Below are positions 1 through 10,106 of a stretch of 10,106 nucleotides of DNA, piece after piece. The notes below the pieces were generated by a model that worked only from the letters and a program-made list of their open reading frames with translations, was not told the origin of the DNA and ran no database searches. Source of the stretch: Myxococcales bacterium (GTDB lineage Bacteria > Myxococcota_A > UBA9160 > SMWR01); the NCBI GenBank assembly GCA_022571825.1, contig JACZXC010000071.1:1-10106 (forward strand), read 5' to 3'. Numbering within the stretch: position 1 is the first letter of the stretch; every line of letters starts with the position of its first letter. Made by a program: the position numbers and the translations under genes.

Positions 1-367
1 GGGCGAGGCCCCCCGCGATTGCGTGGCCGTGGATTCGAGCCAGGGTGACGGCCTCGGCCTCTTCGATGGCGCGGCAGGCGCGAAGCCCGAGCTGCGCGAC
101 GTGGCGGCGCTCTCGATCCGTAGCGTCCGAAGAGGCCCGCAGTCGCGCGCTTCCCGGCGGCTCGCCCAGGTCGGCGCCCCCGCAGAAGGAGGGCCCGCGG
201 CCCCCGAAGATCACCACCCGGGACTGGAAGTCGCGCTGGAGGCCGCCGAAGAGATCCGCGATCTCCTCGAGCACCTTCCCGTTCAGCGCGTTCCGTTTTT
301 CGGGTCGGTCCAGCCAGACGTGCAGGATCGAGTCCTGGCGATCGACCTGAAGTGTGCTCCACGCCAT
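1..367 (-). CDS. Enoyl-CoA hydratase/isomerase (crotonase-fold) family protein, N-terminal ~122 aa. The C-terminus lies beyond the window start.
   Basis: My translation of the reverse complement from the ATG at 367..365 gives MAWSTLQVDRQDSILHVWLDRPEKRNALNGKVLEEIADLFGGLQRDFQSRVVIFGGRGPSFCGGADLGEPP...AVTLARIHGHAIAGGLA. It contains the crotonase hallmarks LDRPEKRNAL, FC(A/G)GADL and the oxyanion-hole AxGGG. A GAGG Shine-Dalgarno sits about 5 nt upstream of the ATG. The ORF is missing from the track because it has no stop within the window. Confidence 0.8.
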   Translation of the reverse strand, partial: MAWSTLQVDRQDSILHVWLDRPEKRNALNGKVLEEIADLFGGLQRDFQSRVVIFGGRGPSFCGGADLGEPPGSARLRASSDATDRERRHVAQLGLRACRAIEEAEAVTLARIHGHAIAGGLA

Positions 368-515
368 CGGCCTCGTTTACCACGTTGCGCTCACGCGTGT
401 CGAGGCTGGCCCGACGCCGAGCGGACTCGGCGACGCGCTATCCTTCGACCCACGGACCTTCGATCGTTCGCCCTTCGCCGCGCTACGACATCCCCTCGGG
501 AGCCTTGGAGAGCCC
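368..515. promoter_or_regulatory. Divergent intergenic region between the crotonase gene (-) and the small-protein/lipoprotein genes (+); presumed promoters
   Basis: A 148-bp non-coding gap between divergently oriented starts. A GGAG RBS lies just upstream of the ATG at 516. I could not identify -10/-35 boxes with confidence in this high-GC context. Confidence 0.3.
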
Positions 516-749
516 ATGACCCGACTGTCGGTGGACTTCGAGCATTCCCCCCGCACGTGGTGGGAGAACGGTGGTCAGGCGCTATGGGACGGGATCAGCG
601 ACGACTTCGACGAGAACGCGATCGTTCTCGACGACACCCTGGCGGAATCTTGGCTCGCCCAGGCCCGCAAGATCGCCGGGTGGGACGCGGGCCCGGAGTA
701 TGCGCCCCACCCGATTCATGCAGCCCCGGCGGATGAGGATCTCGAGTAG
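516..749 (+). CDS. Small acidic hypothetical protein (77 aa)
   Basis: An ATG at 516 is preceded by ggag. The product MTRLSVDFEHSPRTWWENGGQALWDGISDDFDENAIVLDDTLAESWLAQARKIAGWDAGPEYAPHPIHAAPADEDLE is D/E-rich with no recognisable domain. The longer GTG-354 version in the track would overlap the divergent crotonase start, so I prefer the shorter form. Confidence 0.35.
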   Translation: MTRLSVDFEHSPRTWWENGGQALWDGISDDFDENAIVLDDTLAESWLAQARKIAGWDAGPEYAPHPIHAAPADEDLE

Positions 750-818
750 GGCATCCGGCAACCGCCGCGGGTGTCATCGGGGCGAATCCGCCGAGTCGGG
801 TATCGTCGGCAAGGCTTC

Positions 819-1451
819 ATGAGTGCACCTCGCTTCACCGTTGGTCGATCCAATCTGCTGCCCATCCTCGCCGTCGCCACCCTGCTGGCCGGCTGCGCGG
901 GCAGCCCGGATCCCATGCGGTACCTGCTGGCCCACAGTGGTGACCACTGGGATACGGTCTCGGGCCGTTCGGTCGTCGATCCCCTCCGCGAGCGCTATCC
1001 GGAGTTCTTCCAGGTGATCCTGGATCCCTCCAAGACGCGCGAACCCGACTTGCGCCCCCTTCGCAACGATCTGGAGCGAGAGCCCGTTGATCACCGAAAC
1101 TTCCAGGCGCTTCACTCCATTGCCGTCGGATACTTCGAGCTCAACTATCGGGCCAATGCGATTCCCGGGGGTCCGAACTATTTCGCCGACAACTTCCGCG
1201 CCGCCAAGTTGGTCGCCGTGCCCTGGCGCGCCTACAGCGAGGTCGCAGACGGCCGTCTGCGCGACGCAATCCTCGACTTCTTCGAAGATGCGGGCTCTGG
1301 GGAGAAGCTCGGAACGGCGGTGACGGCGCCGCGACTGGCGCGGATCGTGGCGTCACTCGAAGCCAAGGAAACCGGCGATGCAGAGCGTCGACTGCGGATC
1401 CGAGGCCTTGCCGAGCGGCTGGTATCGATGTCCGGGGCCGACGGGCGCTAG
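819..1451 (+). CDS. Putative lipoprotein of unknown function (210 aa)
   Basis: From the ATG at 819 the N-terminus MSAPRFTVGRSNLLPILAVATLLAGCAGS has a positive n-region, a hydrophobic core and a lipobox L-A-G-C, consistent with a SPII-type signal. The mature part has no domain I recognise. The track ORF 771..1451 carries a 16-codon extension that does not look like a signal peptide. Confidence 0.65.
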   Translation: MSAPRFTVGRSNLLPILAVATLLAGCAGSPDPMRYLLAHSGDHWDTVSGRSVVDPLRERYPEFFQVILDPSKTREPDLRPLRNDLEREPVDHRNFQALHSIAVGYFELNYRANAIPGGPNYFADNFRAAKLVAVPWRAYSEVADGRLRDAILDFFEDAGSGEKLGTAVTAPRLARIVASLEAKETGDAERRLRIRGLAERLVSMSGADGR

Positions 1452-2560
1452 CCGCTCTCGACCGCGGGCGGCAGGGGCGGCGGTGATGCTCCGAACAGTC
1501 CCAGCAGCTGCGGGACCTGATTCGCCGAGGTCCAGCCGGCCATGCCCTGGGTCCACACGAGCGTGTCGGGACGAACCCGGCCCGCGCTGGCGGCCTGGGC
1601 GAGCTGCGGCGGCGTGAAGGGGCCGACGCTCTGCCCGTTTTCCGCGATGTGCCAGCTCGCGGGCAGGGGGGGCGGGGGCGCCTGGGGCCCGGTTTGGCCG
1701 GGAGCCCCGCCGGACAACATCGGGCCGGCCATGGCCATGCCCATTCCCAAACCCAAGCCCGCTCCCGCGATACCACCCGCCGGATTCCCGGCCGCCACCG
1801 GCATCGCCTGGCCGAGCTGATAGCTCTGAAATGCCGCCATGTCCCCGATCACGCTCATGCTCGTGCGGGTATCCAGGGCCTGTTCCACCTCGGCGGGAAC
1901 GGAGATGTTCACGATATAGAGCTGTGGGATCTCGAGGCCGTACTCGTTGTCGATGCGTTCGACCACCAAGTGGCGCACCTTTTCCGAAAGGTTCTGATAG
2001 TTAGACGCCAGGTCGAGAACGGCGATCTCGGATTTCGCGACCACGTCGGCGAAGCCCGTATTGATGATCGAACGAATCAGCTCGGTGATCTCGTCGGACT
2101 GGAACTCGGAGTCGGTTCCCACCAGCTCTTCGAGCAGGATCTTCGGATCCTGCGCCTTCAGCGTATAGGTTCCGAAGGCGCGGACGCGGATCGGGCCAAA
2201 GTCCGGGTCTCGCATCATGACGGGATTGGGCGTGCCCCACTTGAGATCCGTGATCTGCCGGGTGGAGACGAAGTAGACCTCGGCCATGAAGGGGGAGTCG
2301 AAACCGTATTTCCAGCCCGCGATTGTACTCAGGACGGGAAGGTTGGCCGTCACGAGTTTGTGCTGGCCCGGACCGAAGACGTCCGCGATTCGCCCCTGAC
2401 TGACCAGGATCGCCGCCTGGCCCGGACGGACGATGAGCTGGGCACCGTGCTTGATCTGGTTGTTGAAACGCGGAAATCGCCAGACGAGAGTGTGGCGGCT
2501 GTCGTCGACCCACTCGATGATGTCGATGAGTTCCGCGCGCAGCTTGTCGATCAGTCCCAT
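1448..2560 (-). CDS. SPFH/Band-7 family protein (YdjI-like, Band_7_1 type) with a C-terminal DUF4339/GYF-like domain preceded by Gly/Met-rich and Pro-rich linkers
   Basis: A 370-aa ORF with a strong AGGAG RBS 7 nt upstream of the ATG at 2560. The N-terminal ~270 aa (MGLIDKLRAELIDIIEWVDD...RPGQAAILV...) matches the Band_7_1 SPFH family that includes B. subtilis YdjI. This is followed by a low-complexity stretch (GNPAGGIAGAGLGLGMGMAMAGPMLSGG), PPPPLP, and the C-terminal segment WHIAENGQSVGPFTPPQLAQAASAGRVRPDTLVWTQGMAGWTSANQVPQL. That segment fits the DUF4339 pattern (W..G...GP....L......TLVW..GM..W). A second Pro tract (ASPPPLPPA) follows. Confidence 0.85.
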   Translation of the reverse strand: MGLIDKLRAELIDIIEWVDDSRHTLVWRFPRFNNQIKHGAQLIVRPGQAAILVSQGRIADVFGPGQHKLVTANLPVLSTIAGWKYGFDSPFMAEVYFVSTRQITDLKWGTPNPVMMRDPDFGPIRVRAFGTYTLKAQDPKILLEELVGTDSEFQSDEITELIRSIINTGFADVVAKSEIAVLDLASNYQNLSEKVRHLVVERIDNEYGLEIPQLYIVNISVPAEVEQALDTRTSMSVIGDMAAFQSYQLGQAMPVAAGNPAGGIAGAGLGLGMGMAMAGPMLSGGAPGQTGPQAPPPPLPASWHIAENGQSVGPFTPPQLAQAASAGRVRPDTLVWTQGMAGWTSANQVPQLLGLFGASPPPLPPAVESG

Positions 2561-2583
2561 GCTCTACTCCTTCGGTCGGGCGG

Positions 2584-3474
2584 TCAGGTGAATTTCTTCA
2601 GGAGGCCGGCGAAGACGTCCACGATCGAGCCTCCGATCGGAACGCCGCGGCTTGGTCGAATCTCCCGGGCGAGGCGCATTCGCGCAAATTCGGCCTCGGA
2701 CCGGGGGTCGACCCGCGGGCGGGACGCCTGGCGCAACTGCGGTGACATTTTGCCCCCGCTCAGGACGAAGCCCGCGATCTGCTCGAGTTCGTCGGCGTCG
2801 AGCCAGGTGCCATGACTGGAACAGCGGTCGATGATGACGCCGGAAGACCTCCGAAAATTGCGGCGCTGCATGAATCCGTCGCAGACGGGACACTTCCGAT
2901 ACTGGACGCGCTGAGCGGCCGGATTCGAACCGGTCACGCGAGGCTTGAGGGCGGCGAGCTGCGCCGGATCGGCGTTTCGGCGCGCGTCGATAGCGCGGCT
3001 CACCAGCAGATCGAAGCTGTCATCGGGGATCCAGAGGCCGTTGCACTCCCGACACTCGTTCAGGCCGATGCCCCCCACCTGGCGAGCCGGCATCAGCACG
3101 GTGCAAACGGGGCAGGGGAGCTCGTAGCTTTCGACCTGCACCTGTTGGGGCCGGAAGCCCACGCCGCAGGCCGTGCAGAAACGCGAGTCTTCTTGGTTGC
3201 GTCCGTAGCACTCGGGACAGATGAGACTGAGGTTCCCGGGATCGCGGACGATCGCCGATCCGCAGTAGTCGCAGGCCTCGACATCCGGGGAAATCAGGGC
3301 ACCGCATGCGGCGCAGCGGCGTACCGCGGCGTCTACGGCCTCGTGGGGATCGTTCTCGACGGTCTCGCCACAGCGACACGGGAACGACTTCGCGACGATG
3401 TCCGAAACGTCGTACTGGGTGTGGCAGTTCGCGCAGACGACAAGACGCACGACCCGGGCCCTCCCCCCGCGCAA
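2584..3474 (-). CDS. Multi-zinc-ribbon protein: three N-terminal CxxC...CxxC ribbons plus two TFIIB-type zinc-ribbon (zf-TFIIB/PF13453-like) domains; YdjG-like
   Basis: In the 296-aa ORF the track start at 3474 is TTG. A GTG at 3450 preceded by GGGGGGAGGG with 8-nt spacing is the more likely start. The N-terminal motifs are CANCHTQYDVSD...CRCGETV, CAACGALISPDVEACDYCG and CPECYGRNQEDSRFCTACG. Two copies of CPVC....M.......CxxCxGxW(L/I)DxDE(L) follow: LPCPVCTVLMPARQVGGIGLNECRECNGLWIPDDSFDLL and CPVCDGFMQRRNFRRSSGVIIDRCSSHGTWLDADELEQI. The stop lies only 23 nt upstream of the SPFH gene start, so the two are likely co-transcribed. Confidence 0.8.
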   Translation of the reverse strand: MRGGRARVVRLVVCANCHTQYDVSDIVAKSFPCRCGETVENDPHEAVDAAVRRCAACGALISPDVEACDYCGSAIVRDPGNLSLICPECYGRNQEDSRFCTACGVGFRPQQVQVESYELPCPVCTVLMPARQVGGIGLNECRECNGLWIPDDSFDLLVSRAIDARRNADPAQLAALKPRVTGSNPAAQRVQYRKCPVCDGFMQRRNFRRSSGVIIDRCSSHGTWLDADELEQIAGFVLSGGKMSPQLRQASRPRVDPRSEAEFARMRLAREIRPSRGVPIGGSIVDVFAGLLKKFT

Positions 3475-3626
3475 GGGCGCGTGTGGGGGTCATCGGGAGG
3501 TCTGCGCGGCGACTTTACGCGGGAGGGTTGCTCGATGTGCGAGGGGGATGGGCCCCGATTCGAGATTGGAAAGACGCTTCGCCGCATCTGGGGGCCTTCC
3601 CCGCCCCACGCAACGCCACAGCGGGG

Positions 3627-4454
3627 TTAGCGGGCGCCGAGGCGGTCGCCGCAGTGCTTGCAGAAACGCGCGTCTTCGGCGTGCCCTTCGCTGAGACAAC
3701 TCGGACAGGCGCGGGTGGTCACGGGTCGCCGGACCGAGTGGACGAGCTCGGCGGAAACGATGCCCGTGGGTACGGCGATAATGCTGTAGCCCATGATCAT
3801 GACCAGGGCCGCGATCATTTGTCCGGGCACGGTCTGGGGCGCGATGTCTCCGTAGCCCACCGTGGTCATGGTCACGATGGCCCAGTAGACGGAGATCGGA
3901 ATGTTGGTGAAGCCGTTCTCGGGTCCCTCCACGATGTACATGACCGCGCCCATGATCACCGACATCACGAGGACCGTGCCGAGAAAGATGATCACTTTGG
4001 GGGCGCTGCTCCGCAGCGCCGAGACCAGGATATTGGCCTCGCCGAGATAGCGGACCAGCTTGAACACTCGAAAAATGCGAAGCAGACGGAGTGCGCGGAT
4101 CACCAGGAGAGAATGGGAGCCGGGCAGGATCAGGCTCACGTAGCTGGGAAGAACGGCCAGGAGATCGACCATGCCATAGAAGCTGCGGGCATAGCGCCCG
4201 GGCTTGCGAACGCATGCGAGGCGCACGGCGTACTCGACCGTGAAGACAATGGTGATGACCCACTCGAAGGCGTGAAGCCACGGCCCGTAGTCATCCACGA
4301 TGTCGGACACGCTTTCCAGCATGACCGCGAGCACGCTCAGCAGAATCACGATCAGTAACGCGACGTCGAAGGCCTTGCCCGCCGGAGTATCGGCTTCGAA
4401 GATGACGATCCGGATGCGCTCGCGGATCTGCCCGGGTTCGCTTGCTGCGGTCAC
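3627..4454 (-). CDS. Voltage-gated-type (6TM) potassium channel with a C-terminal zinc ribbon
   Basis: A 275-aa ORF with a GTG start at 4454. Hydrophobic segments S1-S6 are present. The S4 voltage-sensor-like segment has Arg at every third position (IRALRLLRIFRVFKLVRY). The K+ selectivity filter is TTVGYGD. The C-terminus RACPSCLSEGHAEDARFCKHCG is a CxxC-(x14)-CxxC zinc ribbon in place of the usual RCK or tetramerisation domain. Confidence 0.85.
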   Translation of the reverse strand: MTAASEPGQIRERIRIVIFEADTPAGKAFDVALLIVILLSVLAVMLESVSDIVDDYGPWLHAFEWVITIVFTVEYAVRLACVRKPGRYARSFYGMVDLLAVLPSYVSLILPGSHSLLVIRALRLLRIFRVFKLVRYLGEANILVSALRSSAPKVIIFLGTVLVMSVIMGAVMYIVEGPENGFTNIPISVYWAIVTMTTVGYGDIAPQTVPGQMIAALVMIMGYSIIAVPTGIVSAELVHSVRRPVTTRACPSCLSEGHAEDARFCKHCGDRLGAR

Positions 4455-4581
4455 GAAACCTGCAATTCTCGCCGGGAGCGGACCTTCACACGTCGACCTC
4501 TGGATTCGCCGCCGGATGGTAACGTCCGGAAAGGTCCATGAAAGGCCGACGGGCCCTATGCTCTCGACCCGGGAGGGTGAA
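4455..4581. promoter_or_regulatory. Divergent intergenic region between the K+ channel gene (-) and the ADH gene (+)
   Basis: A 127-bp gap between divergent starts. It contains a short imperfect palindrome, CCGGAtggtaACGTCCGG, that could be an operator. The strong GGGAGGG RBS for the ADH lies at 4571..4577. Confidence 0.3.
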
Positions 4582-5577
4582 ATGCGGGCAATCTTGTTCG
4601 ACCGACCGGGGCGACCGCTGCGGGAAGCCGATCTCCCCGAGCCCGTCCCGCAACCGGGTCAAGTGCGGGTTCGCGTGCACGCCTGCGGTGTATGCCGAAC
4701 CGATCTCCACGTGGTCGACGGTGAGCTCCCGGACCCCAAGCTGCCTCTCGTGCTCGGTCATCAGATCGTGGGACGGGTCGAGGCGGTGGGCCCCGACGCC
4801 GAGGGCTTTGCCATCGGCGACCGGATCGGTGTGCCCTGGCTGGGCGGAAGCTGCGGTGCGTGTCGCTTCTGTTCGACCGGCTGCGAGAATCTGTGCGACG
4901 CCGCGCGCTACACCGGATACCAGATCGATGGCGGTTTCGCCGACTTCTGCACCGCAGACCCGCGTTTCTGCTTTCCCATTCCCGAGCGTTATTCGGACCT
5001 CGATGCGGCCCCGCTTCTCTGCGCGGGTCTGATCGGGTACCGGGCACTGCGGATGACGGGCGACGCCGAGCGACTGGGCTTCTACGGATTCGGGGCATCG
5101 GCGCATATCCTCATCCAGGTCGCGCGATTCGAAGGTCGCGAGGTCTATGTCTTCACCCGGCCCGGGGATGCGGCAGCCCAGCGGTTCGCAGAAGAGCTGG
5201 GCGCGGCGTGGGTCGGAGGCTCGGATCGGGTGCCTCCGGATCCGCTCGACGCCGCGATCGTGTTCGCGCCGGTCGGCGGACTGGTGCCCGCCGCGCTGCG
5301 CGCCGTGAGGAAGGCGGGCGTGGTCGTCTGCGCGGGAATCCACATGAGTGAGATCCCCGCTTTCCCCTACTCGATTCTCTGGGGTGAGCGGGTACTCCGG
5401 TCGGTTGCGAACGTCACGCGCCGCGATGGCGAGGAGTTTCTCGCCCTGGCGCCGAAAGTTCCAGTCCGAACGGAAATTCACCGCTACTCCCTCGACCAGG
5501 CGCCGCGCGCCCTCAGCGACCTGCGAGAGGGGTGCTTCACCGGCGCAGCGGTGGTAGCGGTCCGACCGGGGGACTGA
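4582..5577 (+). CDS. Zinc-dependent alcohol dehydrogenase (MDR superfamily)
   Basis: The ATG at 4582 is preceded by GGGAGGG with a 4-nt spacer. The 331-aa product has catalytic-Zn motifs CGVCRTDLH and GHQIVGRV. The structural-Zn motif is GGSCGACRFCSTGCENLC. A Rossmann-like GFYGFGASAHI precedes the NAD-binding region. The 4300..5577 track ORF has an implausible 94-aa N-terminal extension that overlaps the opposite-strand channel gene. Confidence 0.85.
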   Translation: MRAILFDRPGRPLREADLPEPVPQPGQVRVRVHACGVCRTDLHVVDGELPDPKLPLVLGHQIVGRVEAVGPDAEGFAIGDRIGVPWLGGSCGACRFCSTGCENLCDAARYTGYQIDGGFADFCTADPRFCFPIPERYSDLDAAPLLCAGLIGYRALRMTGDAERLGFYGFGASAHILIQVARFEGREVYVFTRPGDAAAQRFAEELGAAWVGGSDRVPPDPLDAAIVFAPVGGLVPAALRAVRKAGVVVCAGIHMSEIPAFPYSILWGERVLRSVANVTRRDGEEFLALAPKVPVRTEIHRYSLDQAPRALSDLREGCFTGAAVVAVRPGD

Positions 5578-5588
5578 CCATGCGTCTC

Positions 5589-5630
5589 CCGGGAACGACC
5601 GCCGCGAAACCTTTGGTTCCCCGGTGTGTT
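5589..5630 (+). terminator. Possible intrinsic terminator downstream of the ADH gene
   Basis: An inverted repeat CCGGGAAC...GTTCCCCGG has an ~8-bp stem with one bulge and a 19-nt loop. It is followed by TGTGTT, 12 nt after the ADH stop. The U-tract is weak, as is common in high-GC genomes. Confidence 0.35.
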
Positions 5631-5668
5631 CGACTCCACAGCGGAATGGGCCGCTCGGGAGAAAACTC

Positions 5669-6220
5669 ATGAAACGGACTGGGATTCTGGCACTGGCGAT
5701 GAGCTTGGCGTGGGCACCCGCCGCCACCGCGGTGGCGGGCGAGGAAGACGCTCTCAACCGGGCGGGCGATCGGATCGAGCGCCACCTCGATCGCCGGGGA
5801 GATCGCATCGAAGACCGACTCGATCGCCGAGGTGATCGCATCGATCGCCCCCTCGATCGTCGGGGAGATCGCATCAAAGACCGACTCGATCGCCGGGGCG
5901 ACCGCATCGATCACCGGCTGGATCGCCGGGGCGATCGCATCGATGCGCGTCTCGACCGCGCCTCCGGCCGAGCCGCCGAGGCCGGGAACGATGGGCTCGC
6001 GACGTGGCTGGATCGTCGGGGAGATCGCATCGAAGACCGACTCGATCGCCGAGGCGACCGCATCGATCACCAGTTGGACCGCCGAGGCGACCGCATCGAT
6101 CACCAGTTGGACCGCCGGGGCGACCGCATCGATCACCGGCTGGATCGCCGGGGAGACCGCATCAATCGTTGGCTGGATGGGCGGGGCGATCGCGCCCGCA
6201 GGGGCGGTGGCCACCGCTGA
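5669..6220 (+). CDS. Secreted repeat protein: signal peptide followed by ~11-12 tandem 11-residue repeats (L/I)DRRGDRI(E/D)xR carrying ~11 RGD motifs
   Basis: The ATG at 5669 is preceded by GGGAGA. The N-terminus MKRTGILALAMSLAWAPAATAVAGEE has an n-region (KR), a hydrophobic core and an AxA-type cleavage site. The rest is GDRIEDRLDRR-type repeats in two blocks separated by a non-repeat spacer (ASGRAAEAGNDGLATW). The frame is chosen on the signal peptide. Codon third-position GC in this frame is lower than in two alternative frames; see findings. Confidence 0.55.
   Translation: MKRTGILALAMSLAWAPAATAVAGEEDALNRAGDRIERHLDRRGDRIEDRLDRRGDRIDRPLDRRGDRIKDRLDRRGDRIDHRLDRRGDRIDARLDRASGRAAEAGNDGLATWLDRRGDRIEDRLDRRGDRIDHQLDRRGDRIDHQLDRRGDRIDHRLDRRGDRINRWLDGRGDRARRGGGHR
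5760..6185. repeat. Imperfect 33-bp tandem repeat array of ~12 units in two blocks, consensus ctcgatcgccggggagatcgcatcgaagaccga, rich in CGATCG/GATC palindromes
   Basis: Direct inspection shows the 33-mer recurring head-to-tail over 5760..5940 and 6004..6185, with point variants (gag/gcg, gaagac/caccgg/caccag). It encodes the 11-aa protein repeat of the overlapping CDS. Confidence 0.8.
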
Positions 6221-6319
6221 GCCGCGCCCGTCGCCCCCGCTGCCCTGAGCGCACCCGTGAGGCGTGGCTCGACGACCCACGCGCTTCGCGACGAATCCGC
6301 GCGCTAGAATCCCTGTGTC

Positions 6320-7768
6320 ATGGGCCGATCCGAAATGCTTCGTCCGATTGGACCCGCGGTCTTCGAGCTCCCGCGCGACTTTCGTCCCGGCATGCGGGTT
6401 CCGGTGCGGATTTACGGTACAGAGAAGCTGGTGGCCGAAATGGACCCCGAGGTCTTCCGGCAGGCCGCGAACGTCGCCACCCTGCCGGGCATCGTCGAAG
6501 CCAGCTTCTGCATGCCCGACGCGCACCGGGGCTATGGATTCCCGATCGGCGGGGTTGCCGCCATCGATGCCGAGACGGGGGTGATCTCGCCCGGCGGGAT
6601 CGGCTTCGACATCAACTGCGGCATGCGGCTCGTGCGCACCGACCTGCGCTGGCCAGAGGTTCAGCCACGCCTGCGCGAACTCGTCGATGCCCTGGCGGAT
6701 CGCGTGCCGGCGGGAGTGGGTTCCCGAGGCTTCGTGCGGGTGACCCGCGACGAGTTCCGCGAGCTGCTGGAAGGAGGCGCGGGCTGGGCGGTCGCCCGGG
6801 GGTACGGGACCGAAGCGGACCTGGAGACGACCGAGGAGAAGGGCTGCTTCGAGAGCGCCGACCCGGCGTGCGTAAGCGAGCGGGCCATCGAGCGGGGTCA
6901 ACGACAGATCGGCACCCTCGGCTCGGGAAACCACTACCTGGAAATCCAGGTGCTTCGGCCCGATGGAATCTTCGATGCAAGGCTCGCGAAGGCTTTCGGC
7001 CTTTCGCTCCCGGAGCAGGTCGTCGTGATGTTTCACTGCGGCAGCCGGGGATTTGGACATCAGGTAGCGACGGATTACCTGCGATCGTTTCGCCGGAGCA
7101 TGCCGAAGGAGTACGGACTCGACCGCGAGCTGGCGTGTGCCCCCTTTGCATCCCCCGATGGCCGCGACTATTACGGCGCGATGTGCTGCGCCGCCAACAT
7201 GTCTTTCGCGAACCGTCAGGTGATCCTTCACCGCATCCGCGAGGTCTTCTCCGATGTGTTTGGTCGCGATCCCGACGCGCTGGGGATCCGGAACGTCTAC
7301 GACGTGGCCCACAACACTGCGAAGCTGGAGCGCATCGAGCTCGGCGGATGCGAACGCACGCTGCTGGTCCATCGCAAGGGCTCTACCCGTGCGCTTCCGC
7401 CGGGCCATCCGGAGCTTCCGCCCGTGTATCGCCAGACGGGCCAACCGGTCATCATCGGTGGCAGCATGGAGACCGGTTCCTACGTCCTGGCGGGTGTGGC
7501 CAGTGGGATTGCCAGCTTCTACAGCAGCGCCCACGGAAGCGGGCGGAGGATGAGCCGCACCCAGGCCCGCAAGCTGGTGCGGGGCCGGGAGCTTCGGGAG
7601 CGCATGGCGAGACGGGGAATCTGGGTCCGCGCCGCCTCCGATCGCGGCCTCGCCGAGGAGGCGGCCATCGCCTACAAGGATGTCGATGAGGTGGCCGAGG
7701 CCAGCGAGATCGCCGGGCTGTCGCGACGCGTGGCCCATCTGATTCCGGTCGGAAACGTGAAGGGATGA
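6320..7768 (+). CDS. rtcB: RNA-splicing ligase RtcB (3'-phosphate/5'-hydroxyl RNA ligase), archaeal/Thermus-type
   Basis: The 482-aa product aligns by eye along its whole length with Pyrococcus RtcB. Shared segments include GMRVPVRIY, NVATLPGIVEASFCMPDAHRGYGFPIGGVAAID, GVISPGGIGFDINCG, GSGNHYLEIQV, HCGSRGFGHQVATDYL, YDVAHNTAK, HRKGSTRALPPGH, GQPVIIGGSMETGSY and YKDVDEV. The start is the ATG at 6320 or 6335. Confidence 0.95.
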   Translation: MGRSEMLRPIGPAVFELPRDFRPGMRVPVRIYGTEKLVAEMDPEVFRQAANVATLPGIVEASFCMPDAHRGYGFPIGGVAAIDAETGVISPGGIGFDINCGMRLVRTDLRWPEVQPRLRELVDALADRVPAGVGSRGFVRVTRDEFRELLEGGAGWAVARGYGTEADLETTEEKGCFESADPACVSERAIERGQRQIGTLGSGNHYLEIQVLRPDGIFDARLAKAFGLSLPEQVVVMFHCGSRGFGHQVATDYLRSFRRSMPKEYGLDRELACAPFASPDGRDYYGAMCCAANMSFANRQVILHRIREVFSDVFGRDPDALGIRNVYDVAHNTAKLERIELGGCERTLLVHRKGSTRALPPGHPELPPVYRQTGQPVIIGGSMETGSYVLAGVASGIASFYSSAHGSGRRMSRTQARKLVRGRELRERMARRGIWVRAASDRGLAEEAAIAYKDVDEVAEASEIAGLSRRVAHLIPVGNVKG

Positions 7769-8790
7769 CTCGAGGCGCGCCTCGCGGGAGCGGGGACCTG
7801 ACCAAACGGACGCTCCCGACGGGGAAACTTCCCGCCGCGCTGCTCGGGGAGCTTCTGGCCTCGGGTCCGCCCCTGCCCGACGAGGTTCTTCTGGGGCCGA
7901 GGGTTGGAGAGGACGCCTGTGCGATCCGGGTGAAGTCCGGGGTGCTCGTGGCGGCCACCGATCCCATCACCCTCACCGGCGGCGACGTTGGAGGACACGC
8001 CGTGGTGATCAATGCCAATGACGTCGCGGTCCTGGGCGTGCGCCCCCGTTGGTTCCTCGCGTGCGTATTGATGCCACCCACCGCCACCGAGGCCGACATC
8101 CGCGTCCTGTTCGCGGACACGCGTACCGCCCTGGAGAGTGTCGGCGCCGCCCTCGTGGGAGGACACACGGAGGTGACGGAGGCCGTCAATCAACCGGTCG
8201 TCGTGGGACAGATGTTGGGACTGCGTGAGGACGGACACTTCGTTCCGACCCGGGGGATGGGGGAGACCGACGCGGTACTTCAGGTCGGTCTCGCGCCGGT
8301 GGAAGGGGCCGCTGTACTCGCCCGAGAAGCCGACTTCGACGTGCCGCCGGATATGCTGGCCCGGGCCCGTGACGCGCTGCGCGATCCGGGCATCAGCATC
8401 GTGAAGGCGGCGCTGCGGGCCGCCGAGCTGGGGGCAACCGCGCTCCACGATCCCACCGAGGGTGGACTCTCCGCCGGCCTGCATGAACTGGCCGACGCAT
8501 CCGGGGTGGCATTGTGTATCGATGCCGATGCGGTCCTGTGGTTCCCGAGTGGTCTCGCCGTGTGCGCCGCGCTGGGGGCCGATCCCTGGGGTGTGCTTGC
8601 CTCCGGGACGCTGCTGGCCGCCTTTCCCGGGTCGTCCGCCGAGGAGATACTTGCCATCCTGGTAGGGGAGGGGTTCCCGGTCGCGATCATCGCCCGCGCC
8701 GAGCGGGGAAACGGCGTGCGGCTGGCCGATGGCTCGCCGCTTCGACGTTACGAGCGCGACGAGGTCTCGCGGGTGCTGGACACCGCTTGA
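7765..8790 (+). CDS. AIR-synthase-related (PurM-like superfamily) protein, HypE-like but lacking the HypE C-terminal PRIC motif
   Basis: The ATG at 7765 overlaps the rtcB stop (ATGA, 7765..7768). The product (KLPAALLGELL...DACAIRVKSGVLVAATDPITLTGGDVGGHAVVINANDVAVLGVRPRWF...GGHTEVTEAV...) matches the HypE/PurM N-domain pattern TD..I.P..F.GG.IG..A...ANDVAV.GA.PR. A C-terminal AIRS_C-like domain is present. There is no terminal Cys and no SelD-type N-terminal Cys/Sec. Confidence 0.75.
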   Translation: MTRGAPRGSGDLTKRTLPTGKLPAALLGELLASGPPLPDEVLLGPRVGEDACAIRVKSGVLVAATDPITLTGGDVGGHAVVINANDVAVLGVRPRWFLACVLMPPTATEADIRVLFADTRTALESVGAALVGGHTEVTEAVNQPVVVGQMLGLREDGHFVPTRGMGETDAVLQVGLAPVEGAAVLAREADFDVPPDMLARARDALRDPGISIVKAALRAAELGATALHDPTEGGLSAGLHELADASGVALCIDADAVLWFPSGLAVCAALGADPWGVLASGTLLAAFPGSSAEEILAILVGEGFPVAIIARAERGNGVRLADGSPLRRYERDEVSRVLDTA

Positions 8791-8871
8791 GCTCCAGACG
8801 CGGCAGCTCGCTGCAGGAGGTCGTCGACTTCAGGTGGCCTACCATCGCGGCCTCGAGCAGGTGAGCCGTCG

Positions 8872-9891
8872 GTGACAAACGTGAGCATTCTGGGGGCGGG
8901 GGCCTTTGGGACCGCGCTGGCCATTTACGCCGGCGGCCTCGGTCATCGGGTTCGTGTCTGGGCCTTCGACGATGGACTCCCCGAGGCGGTGGCGGCCCAG
9001 GGCGAGAACTCCCTGTACCTTCCGGGCTTCCCCGTTTCCGAAGAGATCGGCTTCACCAACGAAATCGCCGAGGCGCTGGCCGGAGCCGACCTGGTGATGT
9101 TTGTGGTCCCCTCGGCATACATGCGCAGCGTGAGCACTGCCGCAGCACCGTGGATTCCGGACGAGGCCTTGATCACCTCGACCGCCAAGGGCATCGAGAG
9201 CGAGAGCCTGGCCACGATGAGCGGGGTTCTGGAAGAGACGCTGCCGTCGCGTCGAAGTCGTCTCACGTTTCTGTCCGGTCCGAGCTTTGCGCGCGACGTG
9301 GCATCGGGTCTTCCCGCGGATGTTGCACTGGCGGCGTCGGATATCGATGTCGCGCGCAGCGTGCAGTCGATCCTCCACTCGCCGCGCTTCCGCGTCTACA
9401 CCAGCGACGACGTCATCGGAGTCGAGCTGGGCGGGGCGCTGAAGAACGTGATTGCCGTCGCCTGCGGCGCCGCTCACGGGCTCGGCATGGGAGCGTCCGC
9501 CCTGGCGTCGTTGATGACCCGGGGACTGGCTGAAATCGCGCGACTGGGCGTCGCGCTGGGCGCGAATCCGTTGACGTTCCTCGGACTGGCCGGCGTCGGC
9601 GACCTGACCCTCACCTGCAACGGCGAGTTGTCACGGAATCGACAATTGGGCCTGCGCCTGGCTCGGGGGGAGCGGGCTGAAGAGATCGCCGCTTCGCAGA
9701 AGGCGGTGGCCGAGGGCTACATGAGCGCGCGTCCGGTGCACCGGCTGGCGGGGCGCGAGGGCGTCGAGATGCCCATCGCCGAAGCGGTCTATCGCGTGTG
9801 TTGCGAAGGGGCCGACGTACGCGAGGAAGCCGCCGCACTGATGCAGCGAGAGATGAAGGACGAGCTCGCGGGAGTGTTCGCTCCCCGGTGA
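8872..9891 (+). CDS. gpsA: NAD(P)H-dependent glycerol-3-phosphate dehydrogenase
   Basis: The GTG at 8872 has an AGGTGA RBS 7 nt upstream. The product has the Rossmann N-terminus [12 protein letters not shown] and the GpsA motifs [24 protein letters not shown] and GDLTLTC. It is 339 aa, typical of GpsA. Confidence 0.9.
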
Positions 9892-10106
9892 GACGCGCCG
9901 CGCCCTGGGTGCTCCTGGCGGCCGGCGTGGCCGTGTTTCTGTCCGAGTCCTGGGTTCGGCACGCCCAACTCGACGACGCCTACATCTCCTACCGCTACGC
10001 GGACAATCTCGTCTCGGGGCTCGGGCTCGTCTACAACCCGGGTGAGCGCGTCGAGGGCATGACGAATTTGCTCTGGACACTGCTCGTGGCCGTCGGGATG
10101 GGCCTG
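9888..10106 (+). CDS. Integral membrane protein, N-terminal fragment (possible GT-C-type glycosyltransferase-like). It continues beyond the window end.
   Basis: The GTG at 9888 overlaps the gpsA stop (GTGA). My translation is [73 protein letters not shown]. It has a TM helix, a [28 protein letters not shown] motif and a second TM helix. GC3 is high with no stop to the window end. The functional assignment is tentative. Confidence 0.45.

Follow-up and report, generated by a model that had tools for sequence, protein, structure and literature searches.

A predicted zinc-ribbon tail conserved in a cross-phylum family of prokaryotic Kv-type potassium channels

The subject of this analysis is a gene for a Kv-type K+ channel, which lies on the reverse strand of a 10,106-nucleotide stretch of DNA from a Myxococcales bacterium (contig JACZXC010000071.1, positions 1 to 10,106; hereafter the window). 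Judged from its sequence, this channel ends in a genuine zinc ribbon with four Cys (Cys4), one of the generic bacterial DZR/Zn_ribbon type, and this C-terminal tail defines a widespread prokaryotic family of six-transmembrane Kv-type channels. We favor, with a probability of about 0.55, the view that the tail is a built-in module, stabilised by zinc, which acts on the assembly and/or the gating of the channel itself and does so without a partner among the neighbouring genes. The channel gene and the features assigned within it are listed below, with the evidence for each in parentheses.

3627..4454, minus strand: gene of the six-transmembrane Kv-type K+ channel, 275 amino acids (aa), GTG start, with a C-terminal zinc ribbon (open reading frame (ORF), Pfam and AlphaFold model)
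3639..3716, minus strand: zinc-ribbon module T247-L272, TTRA-CPSC-LSEGHAEDARF-CKHC-GDRL (alignments, Pfam and model)
3696..3707, minus strand: first zinc knuckle, C250-P-S-C253 (codon positions; Cys invariant)
3681..3683, minus strand: H258, in a loop particular to the family, E-G-H-(D)-x-D, which lies between the two predicted hairpins (alignments)
3651..3662, minus strand: second zinc knuckle, C265-K-H-C268, followed by G269 (codon positions; alignments)
3717..3746, minus strand: short basic linker L237-T246, including R242 and R243, from the end of S6 to the ribbon (alignment)
3762..3770, minus strand: S6 hinge P229-T230-G231 (invariant in 98 homologues)
3846..3863, minus strand: K+ selectivity filter T198-V-G-Y-G-D203 (sequence; invariant in both homologue alignments)
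4056..4109, minus strand: S4 voltage-sensor helix, residues 116-133, with R120, R123, R126, R129 and K132 at every third position (alignment and model)
4362..4403, minus strand: cytoplasmic motif before S1, I18-IFEADTPAGKAFD-V31, residues 18-31 (alignment)

Conservation of the tail and architecture of the channel

The last 30 residues of the channel read TTRA-CPSC-LSEGHAEDARF-CKHC-GDRLGAR and contain four of its five cysteines, arranged together with a histidine as C250-x2-C253-x4-H258-x6-C265-x2-C268. When the channel protein was shuffled 200,000 times, a CxxC-x8-16-CxxC pattern arose anywhere in the sequence in only eight cases. A preliminary description of this DNA had singled out the tail peptide CPSCLSEGHAEDARFCKHCG, which is indeed present in the channel, and had read it as a zinc ribbon; the module is genuine and selectively maintained. 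The spacing and the position given there need correction, as the two knuckles are separated by 11 residues (C250-x2-C253-x11-C265-x2-C268) instead of the 14 of a CxxC-x14-CxxC pattern, and the ribbon spans 3639-3716, so that the first Cys codon, at 3705-3707, falls outside the range of 3627-3700 assigned to it.

The 120 top-scoring homologues, drawn from a database of 5.8 billion proteins and sharing 60-87% identity, all carry CxxC-x11-CxxC at the C-terminus (120/120). In an alignment of 98 sequences, C250, C253, H258, C265 and C268 are invariant, and T247, G257, A262 and L272 are conserved in at least 90%. Beyond these close relatives, a genome scan with one genome per GTDB species yielded at least 592 confirmed relatives of the channel, and the best 80 of them, with 50-63% identity to the window channel, were compared as genome loci. 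The tail motif is found in 79 of these 80 species-level genomes, which belong to Acidobacteriota, Bacteroidota, Myxococcota, Planctomycetota, Gemmatimonadota, Nitrospirae, Chloroflexota, Verrucomicrobiota, Desulfobacterota, Gamma- and Betaproteobacteria, Ignavibacteria, Calditrichia, Methylomirabilota, Sumerlaeota and Spirochaetales, in addition to one Methanosarcinales archaeon (a metagenome-assembled genome). The ribbon-tailed channels thereby span more than 12 phyla, including that one archaeon. The preliminary description had regarded the ribbon as an oddity on a prokaryotic Kv channel, whereas it proves to be a family-wide feature. It had also staked its reading on whether orthologues keep the four cysteines, and they do, in all 120 best homologues as well as in 79 of the 80 genomes.

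The tails can be summarised by the cross-phylum consensus T-Q/R-x-C-P-x-C-x-x-E-G-H-D-x-D-A-x-(F/H/Y)-C-K-x-C-G-x-x-L. Every tail tallied has the x11 spacing between the knuckles. His occupies the position of H258 in 98/98 close homologues and in 77/79 genome-wide tails, and it is followed by Asp at +1 in 55 and at +3 in 64 of the latter. The ribbon usually forms the extreme C-terminus, and in 40/79 the protein ends exactly four residues past the last Cys. Degenerate tails are rare: one has a CxC first knuckle (L052), and two are devoid of the His (L075 and L017).

The distance between the pore and the ribbon is kept as well. E236, at the end of S6, is invariant, and 13 residues separate it from C250 in 74 of the 98 homologues, with a range of 11-15. 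Strong purifying selection acts on the four Cys, on the spacing of the knuckles, on the length of the linker and on the His-plus-acidic loop (E-G-H-D-x-D). As an obligatory element of the channel, the ribbon is held to the end of S6, a little beyond the invariant P229-T230-G231 hinge, by a short tether of fixed length, and its conservation is independent of any neighbouring gene.

The remainder of the protein is a Kv-type channel. It matches Pfam Ion_trans (PF00520) with 136.6 bits (cut-off 25, E = 1e-39) and Ion_trans_2 with 54.9 bits (cut-off 22.5, E = 8e-15). Both the intact S4 sensor and the TVGYGD filter of the preliminary description are borne out by the S4 basic residues and by T198-VGYG-D203. 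Within S4, R120, R123, R126 and K132 are invariant in the 98-sequence alignment and R129 is conserved in at least 90%. F71, E74 and D97 are likewise invariant in the alignments of channel homologues, and by analogy we take them to be the countercharge residues of the S2/S3 charge-transfer centre. P229-T230-G231 presumably sits where Shaker has its PVP gating hinge. The Ion_trans score, the filter, S4 with its countercharges and the Kv fold together place the protein, as far as homology can tell, in the voltage-gated K+ channel superfamily, as a channel of the six-transmembrane Kv type, with K+ conduction itself being predicted. In seven of the 80 genome loci (L023, L031, L053, L058, L066, L073 and L078), TVGFGD replaces TVGYGD and the full ribbon tail is kept.

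An AlphaFold2 model of the channel, with 98 homologues as input, has a mean predicted local distance difference test score (pLDDT) of 84. S4 is modelled as a helix over residues 116-130 and the S6 helix covers residues 209-241. Across successive blocks of the tail the pLDDT is 79, 88, 90 and 84. The modelled tail contains isolated beta-bridges at 249, 256, 264 and 271, which are consistent with two knuckle-bearing hairpins. Foldseek comparison against the PDB revealed that the model resembles the transmembrane regions of Kv4.2, Kv2.1 and Kv1.x, with a TM-score of 0.6-0.7 and E about 1e-10. The best PDB sequence matches are Kv4.2, Kv1.3, Kv2.1, Shaker and KvAP, and their alignments end at residue 236-241, which is the end of S6. 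In PDB sequence and profile searches, no solved channel structure covers the tail.

A second conserved cytoplasmic element precedes S1. In this pre-S1 motif T23, G26, F29 and D30 are invariant in the 98 homologues, and several adjacent positions are conserved in at least 90%. The conservation of the motif IIFEADTPAGKAFDV is on a par with that of the ribbon tail.

Domain class of the tail and comparison with known systems

To define the class of the ribbon, 22 diverse tails were scanned against Pfam at permissive thresholds. They match DZR (PF12773) in 21/22 cases, Zn_ribbon_3 (PF13248) in 19/22, and DUF7575 and Zn_Ribbon_1 (PF13240) in 17/22 each, and the best matches to DZR and Zn_ribbon_3 reach E = 5e-6 to 2e-7. 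The precomputed annotation of nearly every homologue lists Ion_trans and Ion_trans_2 alone, under the RefSeq name "ion transporter"; the tail is missing from it because most tails score under the Pfam cut-offs.

A search with the 40-residue tail of the window channel alone, as the preliminary description had advised, covered 1.84 billion cluster representatives and gave 182 matches at E up to 0.001. Proteins with a single match are nearly all C-terminal ends or fragments of ribbon-tailed channels, whereas those with multiple matches are generic DZR/Zn_Ribbon_1 repeat proteins. The G-H with flanking acidic residues is absent in 43 of the 46 proteins classed as multi-ribbon. Three small stand-alone proteins (P0123, P0129 and P0187, of which P0129 and P0187 are classed as multi-ribbon) have two or three tandem ribbons with the full CX2CX4HX6CX2C pattern; the His-containing ribbon subtype therefore exists outside channels too. 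Compared to the generic DZR, Zn_ribbon_3, Zn_Ribbon_1 and DUF7575 ribbons, the channel tail shares the two CxxC knuckles and the A-x-F-C-x-x-C-G-x-x-L half, but its x11 spacing is one residue longer and it has a nearly invariant G-H with acidic flanks. These comparisons identify the tail as a distinctive subtype of a common bacterial zinc ribbon, marked by one extra inter-knuckle residue and a G-H-acidic loop, and this His-containing subtype, to judge from the matched sequences, is found overwhelmingly on the ribbon-tailed channel family. The same search returned a 442-aa protein of the phage integrase family (P0229) with a channel-type tail, SCPSCDLEGHADDAAYCRACG, at its end. It could be a real fusion, or an element may have inserted into the 3' end of a channel gene in such a way that the integrase ORF reads into the tail.

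A profile of the tails gave no significant match in the PDB. Its top match was HIV-1 nucleocapsid (E = 0.037, not significant), which is picked up because CPxCxxEGH reproduces the CX2CX4H spacing of a zinc knuckle. A CCHC zinc knuckle (CX2CX4HX4C) was rejected for the tail: the first half fits, but the spacing from His to Cys is 6, not 4. In addition, zf-CCHC is outside the 25 families most matched by the tails, and the Pfam matches are ribbons.

Among prokaryotic channels, KvAP of Aeropyrum pernix and MVP of Methanocaldococcus resemble the window channel in their six transmembrane segments, in the S4 Arg at every third residue and in the TVGYGD-type filter, and like it they are devoid of a large cytoplasmic domain. 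The KvAP chains 1orq and 6uwm align to residues 32-235 of the channel and stop at the end of S6; neither KvAP nor MVP is known to have a Cys4 tail. The channel is not an equivalog of the MVP-type NCBIfam model, which it matches partially (55 bits against a cut-off of 300), or of the Kch-type family (29 bits against 425).

Kv4.2 is the best match of the membrane part in both sequence and fold, and eukaryotic Kv2, Kv3 and Kv4 channels possess a zinc-binding cytoplasmic module with Cys and His ligands, the T1 zinc site, which the predicted tail resembles in these respects. T1 is an N-terminal domain of about 100 residues with a BTB fold, and its zinc site (three Cys and one His) is located between subunits. 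In contrast, the window channel has about 30 residues before S1 and a C-terminal ribbon of about 26 residues, and no BTB/T1 match was found in it by Pfam. A T1-type zinc site was thus ruled out for the channel, as it has no T1/BTB domain and the fold and position differ. Regarding position, the tail is analogous to the four-helix bundle of KcsA and the coiled coil of bacterial sodium channels, which directly follow the pore-lining helix and influence assembly and gating. However, those domains are helical bundles on the pore axis, whereas the channel tail is a predicted zinc-stabilised beta-hairpin domain. Generic zinc ribbons have also been described fused to PspC and in YdjG (10.1101/2020.09.24.301986).

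The family has members in two cultured bacteria, both annotated "ion transporter" and both with the full CX2CX4HX6CX2C tail. In Pseudomonas aeruginosa the protein is the ribbon-tailed Kv member WP_003083179.1 (NZ_CP133752.1, L092:3998-4849), the gene of which adjoins a urea transporter gene and is two genes from muiA. From this gene order and the PAO1 numbering, it is probably PA1496, which appears in the literature merely as a "putative K+ channel" in expression studies. In Klebsiella pneumoniae it is WP_002910080.1 (NZ_CP132641.1, L093:3986-4813), encoded between oppF and a cls gene. Both nucleotide records are labelled plasmids, yet the genes there look core chromosomal. A literature search directed at zinc ribbons of bacterial or voltage-gated K+ channels, and at work on PA1496, found no description of such a tail.

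Gene neighbourhood of the channel

The next genes downstream of the channel, on the same strand, encode a multi-ribbon protein and an SPFH protein, neither of which is part of the channel module. The other assigned genes of the window lie on the opposite strand.

3475..3626, minus strand: spacer of 152 bp between the channel stop and the next same-strand gene (sequence)
2584..3474, minus strand: gene for a 296-aa soluble protein with about five zinc ribbons, outside the channel module (Zn_ribbon_TFIIB, E = 3.6e-10; DZR, E = 3.7e-8)
1448..2560, minus strand: gene for a 370-aa SPFH (Band_7_1) protein with a C-terminal GYF_2, outside the channel module (Band_7_1, 321 bits; GYF_2, 74 bits)
4585-5577, plus strand: gene for a zinc-type alcohol dehydrogenase (ADH)
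5624-6220, plus strand: ORF for a 198-aa protein with a signal-peptide-like N-terminus
6320-7768, plus strand: gene for the RNA ligase RtcB
7765-8790, plus strand: gene for an AIR-synthase-related protein, the start of which overlaps the end of rtcB by 4 bp
8872-9891, plus strand: gene for the glycerol-3-phosphate dehydrogenase GpsA

The preliminary description had placed the channel about 150 bp from a gene whose product is essentially a string of zinc ribbons, which agrees with the 152-bp gap to the gene at 2584-3474. Zn_ribbon_TFIIB and DZR each match its 296-aa product twice, and the protein has no obvious transmembrane segment. It ends in a possible amphipathic helix, GGSIVDVFAGLLKKF. The spacer contains no detectable promoter-like or terminator-like site, and its RNA fold is no more stable than that of shuffled sequence (z = 0.32); at 67% G+C both results are uninformative. 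Aligned with the third ribbon of the 296-aa protein, the channel tail shows 10 identities in 20 positions, whereas the neighbour's ribbon has an x10 spacing and no His. A recent common origin of the tail and the neighbour's ribbons was ruled out, since the two share the generic consensus alone.

The arrangement is not kept in relatives. Adjacency of the channel and the ribbon protein, in the order ADH-channel-ribbon protein, occurs in the window and in one 98%-identical metagenomic contig (L090) only. In the closest other lineage (L081 and L085), with identities of about 75-80% for the channel and 73% for the ribbon protein, a distance of 4.7 kb separates the channel from the ribbon-SPFH pair downstream of it, and this interval is occupied by Usp, a cation-efflux gene, a small ORF and two GlnE genes. 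On the contigs of five relatives at 69-74% identity the pair is not found anywhere. Neighbours were further compared by tblastn of the zinc-ribbon, SPFH, ADH and lipoprotein-like proteins of the window against the 80 genome loci, which found nothing, and by a reverse search from the ribbon protein. Within 6 kb of the channel, SPFH and multi-ribbon genes are absent from all 80 genomes. All-vs-all clustering of flanking ORFs gave no recurrent neighbour, the top family being present in 7/80 loci.

By contrast, the ribbon protein, the SPFH protein and a lipoprotein-like gene form a block that is kept independently of the channel. The ribbon protein is next to the SPFH gene in L081 and L085-L088 as well, and L081, L085 and L086 keep the whole block at 771-3474 of the window together at about 70-84% identity, with the multi-ribbon protein, the SPFH protein (Band_7_1/GYF_2) and a 226-aa protein encoded convergently. 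No Pfam family matches the ORF of the 226-aa protein (771-1451). Zinc-ribbon and Band-7 proteins are known to pair independently of such channels, as do ydjG and ydjI in Bacillus subtilis (PMC8581546; 10.1101/2020.09.24.301986). Similar to YdjG/YdjI (SamG/SamI), the neighbours of the channel, though not the channel itself, combine a Band_7_1 SPFH gene with a TFIIB-type ribbon gene; they differ from the YdjG/YdjH/YdjI-PspA module in that the window has no pspA or ydjH/TPM gene, that the ribbon protein has no obvious transmembrane segment and that the SPFH protein possesses GYF_2. Pairing of the channel with ribbon or SPFH genes is not conserved in relatives or in the 80 genomes, and we conclude that the zinc-ribbon/SPFH pair came to lie beside it by accident, through the gene order of one lineage.

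On the other side of the channel, the ADH, RtcB, AIR-synthase-related and GpsA genes are ordinary housekeeping genes. A DnaJ-like gene and a small ORF, which in L081 separate ADH from the channel, are missing from the window. The 198-aa protein contains about 12 tandem 11-residue repeats, LDRRGDRIxDR, derived from a 33-bp DNA repeat whose array covers 5764-6193. Its Pfam matches are weak, sub-threshold and apolipoprotein-like, and a long antisense ORF overlaps it.

Proposed role of the ribbon tail and its significance

In the mechanism that we propose, C250, C253, C265 and C268 would bind one structural Zn2+ per subunit, and the channel tetramer would carry four small rigid domains under its cytoplasmic face. 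Lying near the S6 activation gate, the S4-S5 linker and the pre-S1 motif, the ribbons may stabilise assembly and/or bias the opening of the activation gate, with the E-G-H-D-x-D loop as a putative contact or ligand surface. This loop is the obvious candidate for such a surface; by standard zinc-ribbon topology it would be at the end of the domain far from the zinc. On the channel side, the conserved pre-S1 motif could be the intrachannel docking surface for the tail. The tail domain is acidic, which argues against binding of nucleic acid or anionic lipid. Three points weigh against a built-in structural module. The five invariant potential metal ligands, four Cys and one His, exceed what a structural Cys4 site needs, which hints at some other use. 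The window tail itself scores under the Pfam cut-offs, with 20.6 against 27.3 for DZR and 19.1 against 27 for Zn_ribbon_3, although sequence comparison with the other tails makes it a short and divergent member of the zinc-ribbon superfamily rather than a non-member. Finally, the AlphaFold2 model is a single chain, and where the ribbon sits with respect to S6, to the S4-S5 linker and to the N-terminus is our inference.

The surplus of ligands leads to the possibility that the tail is a sensor, in which oxidation of the Cys4 site with release of zinc, or binding of a divalent cation or proton to the E-G-H-D-x-D loop, shifts the conformation under the S6 gate and would couple K+ flux to redox or metal status. 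Cys4 zinc sites are redox switches in Hsp33 and in RsrA-type anti-sigma factors. The four Cys together with H258, the acidic-His cluster of the loop with its frequent Asp at +1 (55/79 tails) and +3 (64/79), the short fixed tether to S6 and a first half of the motif with the exact CX2CX4H spacing of zinc-knuckle ligand sets would all suit a sensor. However, the match to the zinc knuckle falls short of significance (E = 0.037), with 6 residues instead of 4 between His and Cys; by the usual zinc-ribbon topology the His would be in a loop far from the zinc site; and no redox or metal-homeostasis gene recurs as a neighbour in the 80 loci. We consider such a sensor unlikely, and its more elaborate form, in which the four ribbons of a channel, tethered 13 residues below the S6 gate, make up a gating ring that senses metal or redox status, is speculative and somewhat less probable still. 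It is about as doubtful that the ribbon docks a partner encoded elsewhere, for example a soluble regulator, a cytoskeletal or scaffold protein, a protease or a chaperone. Zinc ribbons often mediate protein-protein contacts, and a surface loop of the tail is strongly conserved, but no partner gene is co-localised in the 80 genomes, and the conservation of such a partner would need to extend over more than 12 phyla and one archaeon. In favor of docking, zinc ribbons also recur as cytoplasmic appendages of bacterial membrane proteins, such as at the N-terminus of PspC (10.1101/2020.09.24.301986).

A link to the adjacent genes had been the central suggestion of the preliminary description, in which the tail is a docking or regulatory element that couples channel gating to the multi-ribbon and SPFH/Band-7 proteins. 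Such coupling could work by docking of one ribbon on another or by a regulation like that of stomatin. Proteins of the stomatin family are regulators of ion channels in eukaryotes, the genes share a strand across a 152-bp gap in which no terminator was detected, both in the window and in the 98%-identical contig L090, and the tail and the neighbour's third ribbon have a generic consensus in common. Comparison gives the idea no support and leaves it very improbable: the adjacency is confined to the window and L090, the pair is 4.7 kb off behind five unrelated genes in the closest other lineage (~75-80%) and absent from the contigs of the five relatives at 69-74% identity, and no SPFH or multi-ribbon neighbour is found in any of the 80 genomes. 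Moreover, the ZnR-SPFH-lipoprotein-like block is conserved alone, ribbons and Band-7 proteins are known to pair elsewhere, and the neighbour's ribbons are x10 and do not have the family-specific His. As for a fortuitous Cys pattern without function, the sub-threshold Pfam scores of the window tail speak for it, but about 200 homologues, from many phyla, keep the four Cys without exception, shuffling produces such a pattern at a rate of 8 in 200,000, and AlphaFold models the tail confidently; we give this explanation practically no credence.

Prokaryotic Kv channels such as KvAP serve as minimal models of voltage gating and are usually described as having no cytoplasmic regulatory domains. A built-in ribbon module would change this picture for a very large cross-phylum prokaryotic Kv family, in which a zinc-ribbon tail is strictly conserved and tethered to the activation gate, and which is apparently undescribed: the parts, a Kv channel and a zinc ribbon, are both known, and it is apparently their combination that is new. 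A tempting link between the channel and SPFH/Band-7 membrane-stress proteins is removed as unsupported. If the ribbons did form a gating ring, the channels would be modulated by both voltage and ligand, the latter being Zn2+ or a different divalent cation, protons or oxidants. Prokaryotic Kv channels would then include a regulatory class that has so far gone unrecognised, with members in P. aeruginosa and K. pneumoniae. As these two species are cultivable and genetically tractable, the role of the tail is directly testable in them.

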